NCBI GenBank assembly: GCA_035530195.1
Contig: DATKVG010000103.1
Coordinates: forward strand, 4,069-68,068
DNA length: 64,000 bases
Origin: Candidatus Bathyarchaeia archaeon
Lineage (GTDB): Bacteria; Hydrogenedentota; Hydrogenedentia; Hydrogenedentales; SLHB01
Direction of reading: 5' to 3'
Part shown: piece by piece, positions 1 through 57,030 of the stretch
Numbering within the stretch: position 1 is the stretch's first letter
Layout of the letters: each line of letters starts with the position of its first letter
The notes under the pieces: generated by a model
What the model saw: only the letters and a program-made list of their open reading frames with translations
What the model was told of the DNA's origin: nothing
Databases searched by the model: none
Program-made: the position numbers and the translations under genes

Positions 1-1229
1 TCGATCAGGCCATCGACGCAAGCACCATCAACGGCAACGCCATCTCGGTTATCCTGCTCAAAGAAGCTGGTGCGGAAAGCGCCGACCTTTTTATTTCGGT
101 CACCGGCCAGGACGAGGTCAACCTGCTTACGGCGGCTGCCGCCAAAGGGTTGGGCGCCAAGCAGGTCGTAGCTCGTGTCGACCAGCAGGTCTATATCGAG
201 TCCAGCATCCTCTACGAAGCCATACTCGGCATCGACTACGTGCTGAGCCCGGAAGCACTTACTGCGCTCGACATCGCCAAATACATCGAGACCTCCGGGA
301 TCGCCGCCTTGCAGGATTTCGGCCGCGGCAGGGTCCAGATGCGGCAGGTCCGTGTCACGAAGTCGCCGACGGTCGGCGGCAAGACCCTCAAAGACGTGTG
401 CCCGCCCGGATCGGGCGTACTGCTGGGCGTGGTGAGCCGCAACGAGGACATTATCATCCCCCACGGCGACTCGACCGTGGAGCCCGGAGACATGGTAACG
501 CTCGTTGGCCGCACCGAGGTGCTCGACGAGATGCAAAAACAGTTTCAGGACAAGGAGTCCCGTATCCAGCGTGTTTTCATCATGGGCGGCGGCAGCATGG
601 GCTTCCTGCTCGCGCGCGCCCTCGATCAACGCCGCAGGACTATTAAGATCTTCGAGCGCAACCCGGCCCGCTGCCAGGAACTTGCCAATGCGTTCGATCG
701 GGTCGAAATTATTTGCGCCGATGGAAGTTCGCGCGACGTCCTCGAGCGCGAACTGGCCGGCGAAGCCGACGTGTTCGTGGCCGTAACCGACGACGATGAA
801 CGCAACATCATAGCCAGCGTGCTGGCCCGCGAAGTGGGGGGCGAACGCACCATCTGCGTGGTGCACCAGCCTGACTTTGCCTCGCTCGTGCCCAAGCTGG
901 GCATCGACCATGCCGTTACACCGCGCGCCTGCCTGGCCAACCGGATCCTCCGGATGGTTCATTCCGGCGCCGTCACCTCATTGGCCGTGCTCGAAGAGGG
1001 CAAAGTCGAAGTCGTCGAGTTTTCCGCCAAAGAAAAGTCACCCGTACTAAACCGCCCGCTCAAAGACCTGCGTAACCGATTTCCAAAAAACGCGCTCGTG
1101 GCCGTTATCCTCCACGGCGACCAGGTCATCGTTCCCAGCGGCGCAGATGTCATACAGGCCGGCGACTCGGTGGTCATGATTGTCGACAGCGAATCGCTTG
1201 AATCGGTACAAAGACTGTTTCCCCAATGA
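1..1229 (+). CDS. trkA: Trk potassium uptake protein TrkA (NAD-binding peripheral subunit), 5' end outside window
   Basis: The reading frame is open from the window edge (DQAIDASTINGNAISVILLKEAGAESADLFISVTGQ...). It contains a second Rossmann-like GGGSMG motif and a TrkA-C domain. Its stop overlaps the trkH start (ATGA at 1226). Confidence 0.85.
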   Translation, partial: DQAIDASTINGNAISVILLKEAGAESADLFISVTGQDEVNLLTAAAAKGLGAKQVVARVDQQVYIESSILYEAILGIDYVLSPEALTALDIAKYIETSGIAALQDFGRGRVQMRQVRVTKSPTVGGKTLKDVCPPGSGVLLGVVSRNEDIIIPHGDSTVEPGDMVTLVGRTEVLDEMQKQFQDKESRIQRVFIMGGGSMGFLLARALDQRRRTIKIFERNPARCQELANAFDRVEIICADGSSRDVLERELAGEADVFVAVTDDDERNIIASVLAREVGGERTICVVHQPDFASLVPKLGIDHAVTPRACLANRILRMVHSGAVTSLAVLEEGKVEVVEFSAKEKSPVLNRPLKDLRNRFPKNALVAVILHGDQVIVPSGADVIQAGDSVVMIVDSESLESVQRLFPQ

Positions 1230-4815: not shown

Positions 4816-5631
4816 ATGTGGCGTATGTTGAGCCGGCTCATGACGCGGAAAGAGCAACTGGTGCTGCTTTTGTTTGCCGGGGCGATACTAGTTGGCGCGG
4901 TCGCGCTGTGGTACAGCCGGTCGGGTGCCGACGAAGCTACCTTGGCGGTTGCCGCGGCGATTCCTCAGCCCGCAGCCGCGGCCATGCCGGCGGCCGCCCC
5001 GGCTGCGTCTCCGGCGCCCGAGCCGCTTCCCATCGCGCCGCCGCCGCAGCCGCCGCTACAGCGGGCGCTGCAACCGGAGTTGCCGCGGGCGCCGGAAATG
5101 GTCGGTGTGAGCGCGGCGGGCGAGGTGGCGCGGCCCGATGTCTATATGCTGCCCGAGGGGGCGCGTGTGCGCGACCTACTGGAGAAAGCCGGTGGTGCGA
5201 CAGAGCGGGCCGACCTTTCGGACATCAACCTCGCCGCCAGACTTATAGACGGGTCGACGCTCACGATTCCGGCGCGGCGCCAGCCGGGAAAGAGGACGCT
5301 GCCGGCTTTTTACGTGAACCCGCCGCATTACACGATTTCGGGCTGGCAACCGGCGCCGCAGGAGGCCCCGGCTGAGACGCCGCCTCTTGCAGGTTCGCAA
5401 GTGCCGGCGGCCGGGGCGCCCGGCGCGCAGGGAAAAGGGGCCCTGCTGGACCTGAACAGCGCCAGCCAGGATGAGTTGGAAACCCTGCCGGGGATCGGCC
5501 CCAAACTGGCGGCGGAGATCATTGCGTACCGGTCATGGGCCCCGTTTGCGTCCGTAGACGATCTGACCAACGTCAGCGGGATCGGGCCAAAGAAGTTGGA
5601 AGGCGTGCGGAATCTGGTCACGGTGCGGTAA
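4816..5631 (+). CDS. comEA: ComEA-like DNA-binding competence protein (SLBB domain plus tandem helix-hairpin-helix)
   Basis: N-terminal membrane anchor, then an Ala/Pro-rich linker and an SLBB-like segment, then a C-terminal LLDLNSASQDELETLPGIGPKLAAEII...VSGIGPKKLE tandem HhH motif typical of ComEA. The start could alternatively be 4828 or 4840. Confidence 0.75.
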   Translation: MWRMLSRLMTRKEQLVLLLFAGAILVGAVALWYSRSGADEATLAVAAAIPQPAAAAMPAAAPAASPAPEPLPIAPPPQPPLQRALQPELPRAPEMVGVSAAGEVARPDVYMLPEGARVRDLLEKAGGATERADLSDINLAARLIDGSTLTIPARRQPGKRTLPAFYVNPPHYTISGWQPAPQEAPAETPPLAGSQVPAAGAPGAQGKGALLDLNSASQDELETLPGIGPKLAAEIIAYRSWAPFASVDDLTNVSGIGPKKLEGVRNLVTVR

Positions 5632-32797: not shown

Positions 32798-33799
32798 CTA
32801 AATCCCGCCATATTGTCGCTTATAGTATTCGAGGTACTCGCCGGTCTTGATCTTGCGCCACCACCATTCGTTCTGCTGGTACCACTGCACCGTTAGTTCA
32901 ATGCCTTGGTCCCAATCCATGGCCGGCGCCCAGCCGAGCCGATTGAGTTTGGCGGGGTAGATCGAATAGCGGCGGTCGTGGCCGGGCCGGTCGGGGACGA
33001 GCCGGATCAGGTCTTCGCTCTTGCCCATGATGGCGAGGATGCGGCGGGTCAACTCGATGTTTTCGCGCTCGTTGCCGCCGGCGATGTTGTAGATCTGGCC
33101 GGGCTCGCCTCTGCGCAGCGCGCAATCGATCCCGCTGCAATGGTCTTCGACGTACAGCCAGTCGCGCACGTTGTGCTCGCCGCCCTGATACAGCGGCAGG
33201 GGGAGGTTGTCGATGGCGTTTGTCACGAACAGCGGCAGGACTTTCTCCGGGTATTGGTTGGGCCCGTAGGTGTTTGAACCGCGCGTGATGATGACGGGCG
33301 CCTGGAACGTCGTGAAGTACGCCATGCCCATCAGTTCGCCCCCGGCCTTGCTCGCCGAATACGGGTTGCGCGGCGAGATCGGGTCCGTTTCGGAAAACGA
33401 CCCGCGGTCGATGCTGCCGTAGACCTCGTCGGTCGAGACGAGCAGCACCCGGCTTGTGCCAAGCTTACGGGCGGTTTCGACGATGTTGTGGACGCCGCGC
33501 ACGTCCGTGTCGATGAATTCGGACGCGCCGAGGATGCTGCGATCGACGTGGGTTTCGGCGGCGAAATTGACAACGGCATCGCAGCCCTGCATGGCTTCAG
33601 CGAGCGCGTCGGCGTTAGCGATGTCGCCGCGGATGAATGTGTAACGCGACTCATCAATCCCTTTAAGGTTGTCGAGGTTGCCCGCATAGGTAAGCTTGTC
33701 GAAATTGCGGACTTTGATATCCGCGTAATGGTCAAGCTGGTATTTGACGAAATGCGAGCCGATAAACCCCGCACCGCCCGTGACCAAGATGTTTTTCAC
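32798..33799 (-). CDS. rfbB: dTDP-glucose 4,6-dehydratase
   Basis: Starts MKNILVTGGAGFIGSHFV (Rossmann fold). The YxxxK catalytic motif is present. Typical RmlB length (333 aa). Confidence 0.9.
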   Translation of the reverse strand: MKNILVTGGAGFIGSHFVKYQLDHYADIKVRNFDKLTYAGNLDNLKGIDESRYTFIRGDIANADALAEAMQGCDAVVNFAAETHVDRSILGASEFIDTDVRGVHNIVETARKLGTSRVLLVSTDEVYGSIDRGSFSETDPISPRNPYSASKAGGELMGMAYFTTFQAPVIITRGSNTYGPNQYPEKVLPLFVTNAIDNLPLPLYQGGEHNVRDWLYVEDHCSGIDCALRRGEPGQIYNIAGGNERENIELTRRILAIMGKSEDLIRLVPDRPGHDRRYSIYPAKLNRLGWAPAMDWDQGIELTVQWYQQNEWWWRKIKTGEYLEYYKRQYGGI

Positions 33800-34644
33800 T
33801 GGTTTTGCCGCCTCCTTTGGATGTAACCGGCGAGCGCCTCCTGCCAGGCGCGCATGGTATTGCCGGTCAGCTTCTCATATTTCTCGTTGGAGAGCACCGA
33901 GTATAACGGCCGCTTCGCCTTCATCGGGAAAGCCTCCGCGGAACACGGTTCCACGCGCGTATCAAGCCCGGCCAGTTCAACAATTGTTCGCGCAAACTCG
34001 TAACGCGAGCACGAGCCGCTGTTGACGACATGGAACGTGCCGACCGCCCCGGCCGATGCCAGCGCCGCCGTAGCTTCCACCAAGTCGAACGTGTAGGTTG
34101 GCGAGCCGACCTCGTCCTCGACGACGGTGAGCGAAGGGCGCGTCTGGGCGGCGCGGATAATTTTTTCCACGAAGTTATTGCCGCCGGGGCCGTAAAGCCA
34201 CGCGGTCCGGATGATGCAGTGGCGGTCGTTGTTTTCGCGCGTCGCTTCCTCGCCGGCCAGCTTGGATGTGGCATAGACGCAAAGCGGGGTCGGCGCGTCT
34301 TCGGGCACGTAGGGAGACCTTTTTGTGCCGTCGAAGACGAAATCGGTGCTGTAATAAACAACGGCGGCGCCCGCACGCGCAGAAGCCCGCGCGATATGGC
34401 CTGCCCCCGTTTCGTTCACCCTGAATGCGGAGGCGGGGTTGTCTTCCGCGGCCTCGACGTCCGTGTATGCGGCCGCATTGATGACCAGATCCGGCCGGGC
34501 TTCCCGCATGAACTCCTCCACCGCACCAAAATCCGCGATGTCCACTTCCGGAAGGTCGGCCGCAAAAACCTCGCCGTCACGGCTAAACCGCGCGCACAGG
34601 TCGCGCCCCAGTTGGCCTTTCGATCCGAATAGGATTGTCAGCAT
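33796..34644 (-). CDS. rfbD: dTDP-4-dehydrorhamnose reductase
   Basis: An RmlD-like short Rossmann protein (MLTILFGSKGQLG...). It overlaps the rfbB start by 4 nt. Confidence 0.85.
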   Translation of the reverse strand: MLTILFGSKGQLGRDLCARFSRDGEVFAADLPEVDIADFGAVEEFMREARPDLVINAAAYTDVEAAEDNPASAFRVNETGAGHIARASARAGAAVVYYSTDFVFDGTKRSPYVPEDAPTPLCVYATSKLAGEEATRENNDRHCIIRTAWLYGPGGNNFVEKIIRAAQTRPSLTVVEDEVGSPTYTFDLVEATAALASAGAVGTFHVVNSGSCSRYEFARTIVELAGLDTRVEPCSAEAFPMKAKRPLYSVLSNEKYEKLTGNTMRAWQEALAGYIQRRRQNQ

Positions 34645-34936
34645 GATGCCCTATGCGGCCTCGCCGCCCGTTTTAGCCCTATTGTACACGATTTCAAAAC
34701 GCCCACCCAGCAAGACCTGTCACTATTATAGTTTTATACCCATATAAACTAAAGATTTCCCGATTCGAGCCGATGAATTGAGTAAGCCAAGACACGGAGG
34801 TCGGAGGCGGCAGGACAAGCGACACGGAGGTCGCGACAGTTGAAGAGAGACTGACGCAAACGGTGGGGCGCCTATCCCGCGGGATAAAATCCCGGCGCCA
34901 ACGCGGCCAGCGTTTGTTTTTACGGTCTTCCTCCTT

Positions 34937-34980
34937 GAGTGGCGCCACGGTTCGTCGTGGCGCTTTTTCTTTGCCCGCCG
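34937..34980 (+). other. terminator-like hairpin A in the 950-bp non-coding region (GGCGCCACG-gttcgt-CGTGGCGC then TTTTTCTTTG)
   Basis: Read directly. It is preceded by a CCUCCU (anti-SD-like) motif. Confidence 0.4.
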
Positions 34981-35116
34981 CTAAAGTTTAGGCGCTCGCA
35001 GCCGATAAAAAAATCGTAAGGTTCAGGCACTTGAATCCAATCAAGAACGCGCCGGCGGGTGCCAATCCCAACACCCGGCAGTCCGGCGCCGTCCCAAGAA
35101 TCTTACCTCCTTTGAG

Positions 35117-35160
35117 TGCGCCATGACGCGGGTTATGGCGCTCTTCCTTTTGCCGCCGTT
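35117..35160 (+). other. terminator-like hairpin B (GCGCCAT-gacgcgggtt-ATGGCGC then TCTTCCTTTT), paralogous to hairpin A
   Basis: Read directly. It has the same upstream CCUCCUUUGAGUG context as hairpin A. Confidence 0.4.
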
Positions 35161-35498
35161 GAAACACCTCGCGCGTCTAAACCCATTCCGCTAAAGTTCC
35201 CGAACCGCCGGTCGATAAGTACTTCAGAGCCGGACAGGGAGGTCCAAAAACGTGACAAGGACGTCGCCGGCCTTAAGGCTGGGTTGTAAGGACGGTTGAA
35301 TCGGGCTCGGCGGGCGGCCCACTCGGTCCGAGCGAGTGCCGGCCGCAGGATTCAACAGTCAATCCTCTGAGAGTGGCGCTGTGGCGGCCGCAACGACGGC
35401 CGGCACGGCGCCGCATTCTTTATTGCAGGTTGCGGATTAACTGCGGCCGATCTAAACGCGCTTGAGACAATTGGAACCTATTCAATCCGCAATCTGTC

Positions 35499-35545
35499 GG
35501 GGCGCCCCCCGGCAGTTCGTGGGGGGTGTCCCCATTTTAGCTTTG
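35499..35545 (+). other. very stable G/C hairpin (GGGG..CCCCCC-ggcagttcgt-GGGGGG..CCCC) followed by ATTTTAGCTTTGG
   Basis: Read directly. It lies 55 nt beyond the truA stop on the opposite strand. Confidence 0.4.
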
Positions 35546-35599
35546 GGCTTAACCGCGGTTTGTTCTATTCGCTGTTCCGTTTAATCCGCAATCCGCAAT

Positions 35600-36373
35600 T
35601 CACTCATACTCGACCGCCATCAGCACGAGGCCGTGGGCCGGCGCCGTGTAGCCGCGGTACGGACCCGGCGAAGTAAGACGCTCATCGAGCGTCGACGCGG
35701 GCAGCAGGCCGCGCGCAATGTCAATCAGGGTGCCGGTAAGGTTGCGCACCATCTTGTAGAGGAACGCATCGCCGCGGAATTCCAGACGCCACAAGCCTTC
35801 GGCGTCAACGGGACCGGCAAACCCGCCCTCGATCAACTCGACCGAATGCAGGGTTCGGACGGTGGTCGCGCTCGAGGCGCCCGCGCATTGAAACCCGGCG
35901 AAATCGCGCCGGCCCGTGATGTGCCCGGCCAGTTCGGCGAGCCGTTGGAGGTCTACGGGCCACGGGACCAGCCACGCGTACCGCGCCGTGAACGGGTCCG
36001 GGAATTTGGCAAAGGAAAATGCATACGCATAGCGTTTGCCCGTGGCGGAGAAACGGGCATCGAAGTCATCCGGCGCAACTTCAACCGACTCGGCACGCAA
36101 ATCGGGGCTGAGCATGCCCGAGATCGATCTCCGCAGCTTTTCCGTATCGGGTTCGAGCGGCCATTGAAAGTTGCAAACCTGCCCGAGCGCGTGGGCGCCC
36201 GCGTCGGTTCTCCCGGCCCCGCGTACACTGATCGCGCGCGACGCAATCGTGGACAATACGCGCTCGAGTTCCCCCTGGACGGTTCTCAGACCCGGCTGGA
36301 CCTGCCAGCCGGCGAACCCCGAGCCGTCGTACCGGACCGTGGCTTTGATGTTCACGTTGCCCTGGCCGCGCAC
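35600..36373 (-). CDS. truA: tRNA pseudouridine(38-40) synthase
   Basis: The TruA signature (RYDGSGFAGWQVQ) and a catalytic Asp region are present. The start is either the ATG at 36373 (22-nt overlap with eda) or the GTG at 36355 (GTGA overlap). Confidence 0.85.
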   Translation of the reverse strand: MRGQGNVNIKATVRYDGSGFAGWQVQPGLRTVQGELERVLSTIASRAISVRGAGRTDAGAHALGQVCNFQWPLEPDTEKLRRSISGMLSPDLRAESVEVAPDDFDARFSATGKRYAYAFSFAKFPDPFTARYAWLVPWPVDLQRLAELAGHITGRRDFAGFQCAGASSATTVRTLHSVELIEGGFAGPVDAEGLWRLEFRGDAFLYKMVRNLTGTLIDIARGLLPASTLDERLTSPGPYRGYTAPAHGLVLMAVEYE

Positions 36374-37017
36374 ACCGCGTTGGCAAACCGTTTGGCGTTT
36401 TCCGTCAGGCCTTTGTAGTCGCGGGCCGCCAAGAGTTTCTTGCTCACCAGGTTACCCCCGACTCCCAGCGCGGACGCGCCCGCCTTGAGGAACGCGCCGA
36501 TGTTGTCGAGTTCGACGCCGCCGGTGGGAACGAGCGGCACCTGCGGCAACGGCCCTTTCAGCGCCTTGATGTAATCGGGCCCGCCGATGCTTGCCGGAAA
36601 CACTTTGACAAAATCGGCGCCGTTTTCCCACGCCGTCAGGATTTCCGTGGGCGTGTACGCGCCGGCGAACACGGGTTTGCCGTACCGGCGCGCCATCTGG
36701 ATGACGGGGATTGATAGCGTCGGCGTCACAACGTACTGCGCCCCCGCCAGGATCGCCATCCGGCACGTCTCCGAATCCAGCACCGTCCCCACCCCCAGCA
36801 GGACGTCCGCGCCCGCCAGGTTTCTCGACGCGGTCTCGATACACTCGAGGGCGCCGGGCGTCGTCATCGTAACCTCGATACACTGGACGCCGCCCGCGGC
36901 AACAGCTTCCACGACTCGCGACAACTCCTCCCCGCCCGACTTGGCAGCCGAATCGGCGCGAACCACGGCCACAATGCATTTATCCAGCACGTATTGAATA
37001 GCGGCGTACTTGTCCAT
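36352..37017 (-). CDS. eda: KDPG / KHG aldolase
   Basis: TIM-barrel aldolase of the Eda family (VVRADSA...IEVTMTTPGALE...GVGTVL...FVKVFPA), 221 aa. Confidence 0.8.
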   Translation of the reverse strand: MDKYAAIQYVLDKCIVAVVRADSAAKSGGEELSRVVEAVAAGGVQCIEVTMTTPGALECIETASRNLAGADVLLGVGTVLDSETCRMAILAGAQYVVTPTLSIPVIQMARRYGKPVFAGAYTPTEILTAWENGADFVKVFPASIGGPDYIKALKGPLPQVPLVPTGGVELDNIGAFLKAGASALGVGGNLVSKKLLAARDYKGLTENAKRFANAVCAARAT

Positions 37018-42663: not shown

Positions 42664-42687
42664 AGTCCGGAGTCCGGAGTCCGGAGG
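42664..42687. repeat. 3 x 7-bp tandem repeat AGTCCGG upstream of clpP
   Basis: Read directly as agtccgg agtccgg agtccgg agg. Confidence 0.6.
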
Positions 42688-42815
42688 AACTGCAGATTTC
42701 GGATTGCGGATGAACTGCTGAGACGGAAACCGATAGGCAGTCCCAGTTGTCCCAAAGATCAAATCTGCCTCCGCCTGAATCGACAACATCCTGCTAATCC
42801 CGTTATCCTGTCGAA

Positions 42816-45546: not shown

Positions 45547-45589
45547 CCTGTAGTCCCAGCCCAATAAGACCATCTTTTCCGCGGCGAAT

Positions 45590-45635
45590 TCCCCGCCAAA
45601 GGGAACGCATCCGAACCCGGGGTTTTGTCTGTTCT
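45590..45635 (+). terminator. GC-rich hairpin plus U-tract downstream of the 44974-45546 gene
   Basis: ccccgccaaagggaacgcatccgaacccgggg followed by ttttgtctgttctg. Confidence 0.4.
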
Positions 45636-46094
45636 GAGTTGTTTTCATACGTCCATCCGGGGGACCTATCTTGATCTGGCCGCAGATGAGTCCCGGCATG
45701 GATGGTTTGATAATAACCCAGGAGGACACCCCTGGGGAAAAGGATTGCCATTAGCGGAAAGTCCCGTAAGGGACGACTGAAATCGTCCGTGTAAAAGTGG
45801 TCTGGGCGTTCCTGGAGTTGTGATGTCGCCCAACGCCGCCGTCGCCGCGCGACGTCCTTGTCGTGCCACGTCACCGTCGACCCAATGAAGCGGCGAGGAC
45901 GCCGCTTCCACAAGCGCACCATGGCAAGAATTGTAAAGACCCGCGCTTTGCTGACGCGGGCCCAGCCATGTTTGATTTTCTTTTTCTGACGCGGCTTCGG
46001 GCGTAAAATGTGGCCCGACATGAGGAGTGGCGTCTGGTGTGTTGTCTGTCGTATTGGGTGGCGCTGTTTCTTTGACGCCACCCGGTGGAGCGCA

Positions 46095-56922: not shown

Positions 56923-56940
56923 CCGAACAAGACAATCGAA

Positions 56941-57030
56941 TCTGGAACTCAGGAACTCAGGAAGCAGACAGCCGCGCGATCGCAGACCTTCCCTGATCTC
57001 ATGAGTTCCAGATTTTCCTGACTTTGAAGC
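56941..57030 (+). terminator. long imperfect hairpin with U-rich tail after the Tat-exported protein gene; part of the segmental duplication
   Basis: atctggaactca...(~50 nt)...tgagttccagattttcc. A diverged copy lies at 61052-61135. Confidence 0.4.

Follow-up and report, generated by a model that had tools for sequence, protein, structure and literature searches.

The gap between the genes rfbD and truA of a Candidatus Hydrogenedentota bacterium contains three consecutive + strand units, each of which has a sigma-28-type promoter motif, ends in a terminator motif and belongs to a conserved RNA family with covarying helices, and two of the three carry a pair of hairpins that match the optimal CsrA/RsmE motif exactly. 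We consider it somewhat better than an even chance that this spacer contains, in tandem and on the other strand from truA and rfbD, three sRNA genes with separate transcription, which would be read by sigma-28, would titrate CsrA and may in addition pair with ribosome-binding sites. The wider proposal, that these genes belong to an sRNA family not described before, by which the late-flagellar sigma factor would be linked to CsrA, with sigma-28-transcribed decoys in a non-gammaproteobacterial and presumably FliW-type lineage, is put forward tentatively and in our estimate falls a little short of an even chance. The initial annotation had treated the gap as one ncRNA locus, of which the non-coding RNA is retained whereas the single locus resolves into three apparently independent genes, each with its own sigma-28-type promoter.

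Three predicted transcription units between rfbD and truA

In the window, by which we mean the whole 64-kb stretch of DNA that was analysed, rfbD (33796-34644) and truA (35600-36373) are both on the - strand, and the stretch between them (34645-35599) had been singled out as unusually long and non-coding. At 955 nt it is indeed the largest intergenic stretch of the window, the runner-up being about 550 nt, and nearly all the features listed for it earlier were found in place. The ORFs of 30-84 aa in the gap were without a Pfam match, and the indels in the gap relative to relatives were of 1, 2, 13, 15 and 17 nt. The part next to rfbD (34645-34749, - strand), which is divergent from the first unit, is the rfbD upstream region comprising the 5' UTR and presumably the rfbD promoter. 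It is only about 75% identical to one relative, L009, and the letters show an AT-rich stretch at 34720-34750 with TATAAT on the - strand at 34725-34730.

The three + strand units are A (about 34783-34973), B (about 35015-35152) and C (about 35225-35428). Unit A, of type 1 and about 190 nt, has its start placed by the position of its promoter and scores 134.5 bits with the covariance model R1 described below. It has two hairpins with the sequence GACACGGAGGUC, H1 at 34791-34802, with a lower stem of GCC at 34786-34788 and GGC at 34806-34808, and H2 at 34821-34832; both are invariant in alignment A2. A UUG-initiated frame after H2 was considered as a small ORF and was rejected because by our own reading of the sequences its length is not conserved. 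The two hairpins had been noted before as a 13-bp direct repeat, and GACACGGAGGTCG does occur at 34791-34803 and 34821-34833, but the repeat actually consists of two CsrA-type GGA hairpins, and it has degenerate copies at 35233 and at 35254. Further downstream is a GGCGCC/GGCGCC hairpin (34867-34899) with AAAUCCC in its loop, into which the previously noted 14-bp palindrome TATCCCGCGGGATA (34873-34886) is inserted; this palindrome is lineage-specific and is missing from the two relatives L009 and L091. The unit then has CUUCCUCCUU at 34927-34936, 5' of the terminator (34941-34964), which is followed by a U tract.

Unit B, of type 2 and about 137 nt, scores 55 bits with R1 and is without the GGA hairpins. 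Its minimum free energy is -56.2 kcal/mol (z = -3.97), and in the predicted fold a closing stem P1 pairs GUAAGGUUC (35016-35024) with GAAUCUUAC (35098-35106), a hairpin at about 35057-35076 has the loop CCAAUCCCAA, and ACCUCCUUU (35105-35113) is single-stranded. A terminator hairpin follows at 35118-35141, with a U tract behind it. The two units of CUUCCUCC/ACCUCC, hairpin and U tract that had been described are found as + strand terminator-like sites in units A and B. P1 and the single-stranded CCUCC of unit B recur with altered sequence in six of seven homologues. Unit C, again of type 1 and about 200 nt, scores 115.5 bits (fold z = -3.2) and has H1, GACAGGGAGGUC, at 35233-35244 and H2, GACAAGGACGUC, at 35254-35265. 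These are followed by nested stems (35291-35360), whose outer arms, GTTGAATC at 35291-35302 and GATTCAAC at 35349-35360, are the long-range stem reported before, by AAUCCUCUG at 35361-35369 and by a long terminator hairpin at about 35369-35418 with the tail UUCUUUAUU; the GGCGC/CGGCCG double stem of the initial annotation is this terminator hairpin. All three units thus end on the + strand in a GC-rich hairpin with a U-rich tail, and the stems of these terminators covary.

Conservation and covariation of the RNA family

The units are 89-97% identical to those of the two relatives L009 and L091, compared to 83-85% for the coding sequences of truA and rfbD; by unit, the identities are 94.8-96.6% for A, 94-95% for B and 88.6-89.8% for C. 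Insertions between the genomes are confined to loops. With the covariance model R1, 36 units were collected from roughly 20 loci in genomes and metagenomes, and in most cases they converge with truA. Among the MAGs with the family are JAPLKX01, CAXXYE01, JADLGB01 and CAZWDH01. True members score 45-162 bits, the RNAs range from 140 to 280 nt, and there are exactly three matches in the window. A pattern scan of metagenomes returned mostly unrelated hairpin repeats, which the model places at 38 bits or less. Of the cells 90.8% are paired, compared to 30-50% in slid controls, and 18 of 28 pairs show double changes, a number which none of 500 shuffles reached. One to three copies of the unit are present at the same place in relatives whose truA is only 50-62% identical. 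In L012 and L019 the units adjoin truA without rfbD, and in L200 and L145 they lie away from truA, where their neighbours, isochorismatase/NAPRTase and glycogen phosphorylase, are uninformative.

Rfam gave no family match at gathering score in the whole window, nor in 18 loci of the family, and on the spacer at E values up to 10 it gave only weak, terminator-driven matches. Among these, the mmgR/suhB sRNA reached 22.1 bits (threshold 41) and the Burkholderia ncS54 sRNA 25.1 bits (threshold 43), and both matches cover only the terminator and the CUCC stretch. A scan for tRNA and tmRNA found none. The reading offered from the letters, a non-coding RNA locus with hairpins that are + strand intrinsic terminators or the 3' ends of sRNAs, is therefore supported, because the core at 34750-35430 shows higher conservation than the genes beside it, its helices covary, it is without coding signal and it is without an Rfam match. 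These results also speak against the two explanations that had been named as contrary to it, that the spacer is not conserved in relatives and that it is a degraded pseudogene.

Conservation stops directly after the tail of unit C. The initial annotation had included in its single locus the last 170 nt or so, with the AATCCGCAAT repeats and a hairpin of 10 GC pairs, and this part has to be taken out, as it forms a structure of its own at the truA 3' end, which is not conserved and cannot be aligned between genomes. The structured region after the truA stop codon (35418-35603, - strand) has a fold z of -3.5, and arms of inverted heptamer repeats at 35422-35440 and 35581-35599 (19 nt, 89% complementary) enclose the GC-rich hairpin, which spans 35499-35532 and has 13 pairs, of which 10 are G-C. 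AATCCGCAAT does recur, but exact copies number only three, always within 35484-35599, and the further copies reported at 42701 and 57052 are only 9/10 matches. In the place of this structured region L009 has an unrelated stem of about 38 bp (z = -9.8). The stretch 35433-35599 is probably separate from the sRNAs, either as a hairpin at the 3' end of truA or as an element that insulates the convergent transcripts from each other.

Sigma-28-type promoters and CsrA-type hairpins

When both strands were scanned with the sigma-28/FliA consensus from the literature, TAAAGTTT-N11-GCCGATAA, allowing up to three mismatches, only three matches were found in 64 kb, all of them in the spacer and on the + strand and one of them perfect. 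The number expected was 0.25, and none of 100 shuffles reached three. The perfect match, TAAAGTTT-N11-GCCGATAA at 34982-35008, belongs to unit B, and the other two, with two mismatches each, are TAAAGATT-N11-GCCGATGA at 34750-34776 for unit A and TAAAGTTC-N11-GTCGATAA at 35192-35218 for unit C; the distance from each to the predicted transcript start is as it should be. Across the three aligned genomes there is hardly any change in the -35 and -10 boxes, and the 11-nt spacers are free to vary. Both boxes of unit A are the same in L009 and L091, with the spacer altered in L091; those of unit B are kept in all three genomes except for one -35 change in L091, with most of the 11 spacer positions different; and the promoter of unit C is kept in L091 and, with a spacing of 12, in L009. 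All 36 units of the covariance model carry the motif at the right distance, with a spacer information of about 0 bits, and the promoter was not part of the pattern used to search metagenomes. A sigma-70 promoter scan found none.

Units A and C each have two GAC-ANGGAN-GUC hairpins, 20-30 nt apart. These match the CsrA/RsmE optimal motif (A/U)CANGGANG(U/A) exactly, two per type-1 unit, and they fit the SELEX result for CsrA, in which ACA and GGA were 100% conserved. In 20 aligned units G-A-C-A-n-G-G-A-n-G-U-C is invariant in both hairpins, and variation occurs only at the two n positions; in four long units outside this alignment the middle stem pair of H1 is changed from A-U to G-C. This invariance is partly by construction at the loci found by pattern, because the search pattern contained both hairpins, but units found by synteny with truA are equally invariant. 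ACANGGANGT occurs eight times in the window against 1.17 expected, and four of the eight are in units A and C. GGA heptad repeats, considered as a genome-wide CsrA feature, were not enriched (2 found, 0.66 expected) and were dropped.

A probable course of events can be outlined from these motifs. Each gene would be read from its sigma-28 (FliA, late-flagellar) type promoter to its own intrinsic terminator, giving RNAs of about 190, 137 and 200 nt. In those of units A and C the two short hairpins, each with a GAC/GUC stem of 3 bp below a hexaloop A-N-G-G-A-N, would lie 8-10 nt from the predicted 5' end and would form an optimal CsrA/RsmE ligand, with a spacing that one CsrA dimer could bridge. 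When sigma-28 is active, these RNAs would bind and titrate CsrA, and repression of flagellin and other GGA-containing targets would be lifted, as happens with the Campylobacter flaA leader and CsrB/RsmZ. The AAUCCCA loop and the single-stranded CCUCC of all three units, a second module and the only one that unit B has, could pair with ribosome-binding sites.

CsrA is among the most widespread post-transcriptional regulators. To our knowledge dedicated RNA antagonists of it are known essentially only in Gammaproteobacteria; elsewhere it is antagonised by the protein FliW and in Campylobacter also by flagellin mRNA. Whether sRNAs and FliW ever act together remains to be determined according to a review (PMC7652899). 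If the proposal is true, the flagellar hierarchy would for the first time be seen to include sRNAs that antagonise CsrA, and the phylum, which is without known CsrA decoy RNAs, would have some. This would bear on whether sRNAs are used in FliW-type systems too, and RNAs that join a sigma-28 promoter to a pair of optimal CsrA hairpins would offer a concrete candidate circuit. Although the phylum is uncultured, the proposal is easily tested in vitro, since synthesis is possible for the RNAs as well as for the promoters and the proteins, and the family is ready as a covariance model for annotators of long "empty" spacers beside truA in Hydrogenedentota.

Searches for csrA, fliW, fliA and flagellin (tblastn, and Pfam annotation of the window) found none in the window or in about 1.5 Mb of related loci, and the genomic neighbours of the units are housekeeping and not flagellar genes; flagellins are on record in Ca. 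Hydrogenedentes. Two GGA sites per RNA (four in one unit, L012u2) are few for a sponge, as CsrB and RsmZ have many more, and more than five were not found in any. Csr/Rsm families of Rfam had no match in the spacer at E up to 10, and none of nine chance-level matches to the GacA/UvrY box TGTAAG-N6-CTTACA lay in the spacer.

Alternative explanations and known systems

What CsrA binding leaves unexplained is the role of unit B and the C-rich motifs. In the predicted folds all three units have an AAUCCCA loop and, between closing stem and terminator, a single-stranded (A)CCUCCUU(U), which we take to resemble the anti-Shine-Dalgarno tail of 16S rRNA. The units could be ordinary trans-acting sRNAs, in which this loop and the CCUCC block target Shine-Dalgarno sequences and the GGA hairpins are structural or serve another factor, without CsrA. 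It is consistent with this that most members leave the CCUCC/CCCUC stretch unpaired in their predicted folds, that unit B and other type-2 units carry the C-rich motifs only and yet are conserved like type 1, and that the weak Rfam likeness, to ncS54 (25 bits) and mmgR/suhB (22 bits), is to sRNAs of such design. However, CCUCC is not universal, as L203u2, L117u2 and L123 have U-rich or other sequence there, and in every type-1 unit the GACANGGANGUC hairpins vary only at the two positions that CsrA does not read. Because a structural hairpin needs no invariant loop, hairpins of mere structure are disfavoured, and we hold this explanation to be unlikely.

Less probable still is a self-contained structured RNA, in which the GGAGG/GGAUG loops pair with CCUCC/AUCCC of their own or a neighbouring unit as a pseudoknot or kissing interaction. 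GGAGG is complementary to CCUCC and GGAU to AUCC, and in the minimum free energy fold of unit A the H1 and CCUCC regions are paired with each other, but H1 and H2 are free hairpins in the folds of most members, and L203u2 and L117u2 have two GGAGG loops without any CCUCC. A GGAGG-CCUCC or GGAUG-CAUCC kissing interaction is ruled against by the absent covariation: the variable loop base changes among G, U, C and A, and the AUCCC loop and the 3' motif stay constant.

A sigma-28-type promoter followed by two GGA hairpins is also the layout of the C. jejuni flaA leader, and we presume the 5' module to resemble the B. subtilis hag leader as well, so that the units might be relics of flagellin-type mRNA leaders that lost their coding part and decay without a function of their own. 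This we regard as very improbable, since the units surpass the protein genes around them in conservation, have terminators of their own that are maintained by compensatory changes, persist as one to three copies in relatives with a much diverged truA and have no detectable coding remnant. That the gap is instead a cis-acting structured intergenic region of the - strand, on which truA and rfbD both lie, with REP-like hairpins or processing sites and with the previously noted AAGGAGG as ribosome-binding sites, is hardly credible, as the promoter motifs and the conserved U tracts 3' of the hairpins are on the + strand only, the AAGGAGG sites have no downstream start codon or conserved ORF, and units occur beside truA without rfbD or away from truA.

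Seen as sRNA genes with sigma-28-type promoters and CsrA-type hairpins, the units may be compared with several known systems. The TwoAYGGAY RNA motif of Rfam has two hairpins with AYGGAY loops, a pattern which ACGGAU fits; the loops here are mostly ACGGAG, and the motif was not among the Rfam matches of the spacer at E up to 10. Like the units, CsrB/CsrC and RsmX/Y/Z are non-coding, have GGA in hairpin loops and an intrinsic terminator and often occur as paralogous copies, but they have roughly 5-22 sites per RNA, GacA/UvrY-dependent and not sigma-28-like promoters, Rfam families which the units do not match, and belong to another phylum. E. coli also has small RNAs under its late flagellar sigma factor, which are UTR-derived and base-pairing, whereas the units are free-standing tandem genes; none of the known RNAs of this kind is described as a CsrA decoy, and the units have neither sequence similarity to them nor Rfam matches.

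The flaA leader of C. jejuni is a CsrA target that also titrates CsrA (Dugar et al. 2016, PMC4894983), and its two GGA hexaloops are separated by 21 nt, compared to 20-30 nt for the hairpins here. It is a late flagellar transcript of the FliA class, as the units would be by their promoter motifs, and it counteracts CsrA as an RNA in a FliW-type system outside the Gammaproteobacteria, as is proposed for the units. Unlike it, the units have no downstream coding sequence and no sequence homology to it, and they carry extra C-rich modules; each RNA has a terminator of its own, which closes it at 140-280 nt, and would therefore be a dedicated decoy. Finally, McaS and GadY of E. coli are sRNAs that act by base-pairing and in addition bind CsrA, for which they have two or more GGA motifs (PMC7652899). 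They are Hfq-dependent and enterobacterial, with other promoters and no homology to the units, but the combination of few GGA sites with a separate base-pairing region is the same and suggests a dual mode of action.

The rfbD-truA spacer and its conservation

The gap between rfbD (33796-34644) and truA (35600-36373) is 955 nt long and in the ORF map is the largest non-coding stretch of the window, the runner-up being about 550 nt; both genes are on the - strand, as are rfbB (32798-33799) and an aldolase gene (36352-37017). The small ORFs of the spacer had no Pfam match, a tRNA scan of it found none, and no Rfam family was found in it at the gathering score; at E-values up to 10 the only likenesses, to ncS54 (25 bits) and mmgR (22 bits), were driven by the terminators. 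From the features listed in the initial annotation we recovered the 14-nt palindrome at 34873-34886, the 13-nt direct repeat at 34791 and 34821 (which also has degenerate copies at 35233 and 35254), the terminator-like hairpins of the + strand at 34941-34964, 35118-35141 and 35499-35532, and the GTTGAATC/GATTCAAC stem in its place. The recurrence of AATCCGCAAT is narrower than had been proposed: there are three exact copies, all within 35484-35599, but the copies placed near 42701 and 57052 match at just 9 of 10 positions.

Among genomes, relatives of the truA protein are found in Candidatus Hydrogenedentota MAGs, L009 being the closest with 87% protein identity and about twenty others having 50-62%, and unchanged copies of the protein occur on several metagenome contigs. 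When the spacer was aligned with those of L009 and of L091, a metagenome contig at a distance similar to L009, the stretch from 34750 to about 35430 was highly conserved and that beyond about 35432 was unalignable. Identity to L009/L091 was 94-97% for units A and B and 89-90% for unit C, these being the predicted sRNA genes of the spacer; it was 83-85% for the truA and rfbD coding sequences and about 75%, in L009 only, for the 100 nt proximal to rfbD. The indels were of 1, 2, 13, 15 and 17 nt with the longer ones in hairpin loops, and the 14-nt palindrome belongs to the 15-nt insertion, which is peculiar to the window's lineage. This conservation and the pattern of indels exclude a degraded gene, which the initial annotation had named, along with a lack of conservation in relatives, as evidence that would count against an RNA locus.

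Promoters, terminators and the truA 3' end

Each conserved block opens with CTAAAG(A/T)T(T/C)-N11-G(C/T)CGAT(A/G)A. The sigma-28/FliA promoter consensus is TAAAGTTT-N11-GCCGATAA, and on the + strand it is matched perfectly by the promoter of unit B (34982-35008) and with two mismatches each by those of unit A (34750-34776) and unit C (35192-35218). These are the only sigma-28-like sites with up to three mismatches on both strands of the whole window, where 0.25 are expected, and no shuffle gave three. Across the three genomes the promoter boxes are nearly invariant, with a single change, a terminal C in the L091 copy of the unit B -35 box, and the 11 nt separating the -35 and -10 boxes vary freely, as a promoter footprint would. 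A G+C-rich hairpin and then a U tract close each block on the + strand, and with starts inferred from the promoters the predicted + strand RNAs span about 34783-34973 (A), 35015-35152 (B) and 35225-35428 (C). The spacer very probably holds three sRNA genes, each with a terminator and a conserved promoter of its own, and FliA is the probable sigma factor for them. What had been taken for a single ncRNA locus is indeed non-coding and conserved, but it comprises three predicted genes rather than one, and 35433-35599 is separate from them.

Heptamer repeats (AUUGCGG AUUGCGG ...) directly past the truA stop codon pair with an inverted copy 140 nt off and enclose a GC hairpin, the inverted repeat spanning 35418-35603 (AATCCGC heptamers, z = -3.5). 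At the truA 3' end of related genomes the sequence is wholly different and the long stem is kept; in L009 it is a stem of about 38 bp at 4893-5075 with GTCTGGA (GUCUGGA) repeats unrelated in sequence to those of the window (z = -9.8), and in L091 there are GATTGCA repeats. As it is the architecture and not the sequence that is conserved, we read 35433-35599 as a 3'-end hairpin or an insulator between the convergent transcripts of truA and unit C. Other genes of the window also have heptamer-based inverted repeats on their 3' side, GTCCGGA at 42664-42712 and GGAACTCA at 56940 (56935-57030).

The wider family and its 5' GGA hairpins

In L009, L012, L017, L019, L022, L024, L028 and L033 the stretch immediately downstream of truA holds homologous units, in every case convergent with truA, and rfbD follows in some of these loci and not in others. 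A metagenome scan with the two 5' hairpins alone as the pattern gave a dozen more members (L091, L093, L109/L145, L117, L123, L140, L148, L149, L187, L200, L203, L206) amid many unrelated repeats; truA adjoins five of the loci so found, and not L200 or L145. The covariance model of the family, built from 20 units, gave members 45-162 bits and no unrelated repeat more than 38 bits, and in the window it had exactly three hits, A (134.5 bits), C (115.5 bits) and B (55.0 bits). In a 26-unit alignment, which was fitted to the model so that its pairing counts lean toward structure, 90.8% of cells were paired compared to 30-50% with slid partners and 18 of 28 pairs had changes on both sides, values reached by none of 500 shuffles. 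RNAalifold on a plain MAFFT alignment independently recovered the two mini-hairpins and a covarying terminator. All 36 of 36 units have a sigma-28-like motif upstream, at a spacing of 11 or 12 and with a spacer that carries next to no information, and at the units of 18 family loci there was no Rfam family match. One member (L012 4671-4942, - strand) has four GACANGGAUGU(C/U) hairpins, not two, which suggests that the units can expand toward a multi-site sponge.

The 13-nt direct repeat is the predicted hairpin pair, H1 and H2, that marks type-1 units (A and C). Both hairpins read G-A-C-A-n-G-G-A-n-G-U-C in 20 of 20 aligned type-1 units, which leaves only the n positions variable. The lower stem of H1 covaries (GCC/GGC, GGCG/CGCC, CGG/CCG) beneath a purine-rich internal loop, and in four long units outside that alignment the middle pair of the H1 stem is G-C instead of A-U. 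Metagenome members found by the pattern carry the hairpins by construction, but the same invariance is present in units not so selected, that is, those found by truA synteny and the second units of pattern-found loci. The hairpins match the optimal RsmE/CsrA contact motif, (A/U)CANGGANG(U/A), exactly, and agree with the SELEX consensus for CsrA, RUACARGGAUGU, in which ACA and GGA are 100% conserved. Their starts are 20-30 nt apart; in the flaA leader of C. jejuni, a CsrA-repressed RNA that also titrates CsrA, two CANGGANG-type GGA hexaloops are 21 nt apart, near the optimal inter-site distance (PMC4894983). Of the 8 copies of ACANGGANGT in the window, where 1.17 would be expected, four are within units A and C. 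Going by these motif matches, CsrA may well be the ligand of the type-1 hairpins.

GGA hairpins were also seen elsewhere. At 45844-45862 (- strand) there is a hairpin CGAC-AAGGAC-GUCG nearly identical to H2 of unit C, with no promoter motif and no family-model hit at the site. The gap that holds it, at about 45547-46094, is the window's second longest without coding sequence and precedes the ATP synthase operon. More than 100 unrelated metagenome contigs among loci L089-L207 (e.g. L094 4773-4819, L111 8230-8320, L193 1785-2030) carry tandem arrays of hairpins with a GAC-ACGGAG-GUC core and longer variable stems, e.g. GGACGACACGGAGGTCGTCCCTCC and GGGCGGACACGGAGGTCCGCCCCTAC. These arrays had no sigma-28-like promoter, no Rfam match and family-model scores of 38 bits or less, and they look like a widespread repeat class displaying the CsrA-type loop. 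On the other side of truA in L140 (1-351, - strand) a further sigma-28-like promoter, CTAAAGTTCGGGCTAAAGTTGCCGATAA, precedes a predicted transcript with at least six GGA motifs, including the hairpin GGAACCC-AGGGAC-GGGUUCC; the 3' end of this transcript lies beyond the end of the contig.

Type-2 units, proposed action and known systems

Type-2 units, which are without the GGA hairpins (unit B of the window, L009, L091, L012u1, L017u1, L140u3, L203u1 and L117u1, the suffix giving the unit within the locus), have a closing stem in which 5' GUAAG... pairs with 3' ...CUUAC and whose sequence differs by lineage, e.g. GUAAGGUUC/GAAUCUUAC versus GUAAGCAU/AUGCUUAC. Their internal hairpin has the loop (C)AAUCCCA, and a pyrimidine stretch of 6-9 nt (ACCUCCUUU in unit B) is single-stranded between closing stem and terminator in the predicted folds. 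Type-1 units also have the C-rich loop and the pre-terminator pyrimidine stretch. A test for pairing of these C-rich motifs with the GGA loops of the same molecule gave no support: no covariation links the motifs to the variable base of the loop, and CCUCC is missing entirely from two units whose loops read GGAGG. The pyrimidine stretch resembles the 3' tail of 16S rRNA; sRNAs that act by masking Shine-Dalgarno sequences use seeds of this kind.

Upon activation of sigma-28 the three RNAs would be made alongside the late flagellar genes. A and C would each offer one CsrA dimer a bridged pair of high-affinity sites in competition with mRNA leaders, thereby raising the translation of CsrA-repressed targets, and B as well as the 3' halves of A and C may also pair with ribosome-binding sites. 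For a sponge, two sites in each RNA is a low number. Neither the window nor the 1.5 Mb of related loci searched yielded csrA, fliW, fliA or flagellar genes; the literature records flagellins for the phylum and motility for a sister lineage.

In the proposed mode of action the units are like the flaA leader, CsrB/RsmZ and McaS, and they also have a likeness to the E. coli and C. jejuni sRNAs that depend on sigma-28. They are members of none of these groups because they have no Rfam match, the spacer has no GacA box, their GGA sites are too few to fit the CsrB class and, unlike UTR-derived sRNAs, they are free-standing genes. A review leaves it open whether FliW-type systems also use sRNAs (PMC7652899), and the family is a candidate answer to that question.

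Two further observations concern the surrounding contigs. A Y1 (IS200/IS605-type) transposase gene was seen in L002 (88-540), a metagenome contig of the same organism, next to a 447-aa gene and in the position that clpP occupies in the window and in L001 (3782-4360); this points to a rearrangement at strain level some 8 kb from truA. The Hydrogenedentota-like contig L117 has an Acido-Lenti-1 RNA (RF01687) at 64-110 (- strand), about 9 kb from its sRNA array, with a score of 48.8 bits against a gathering threshold of 37.
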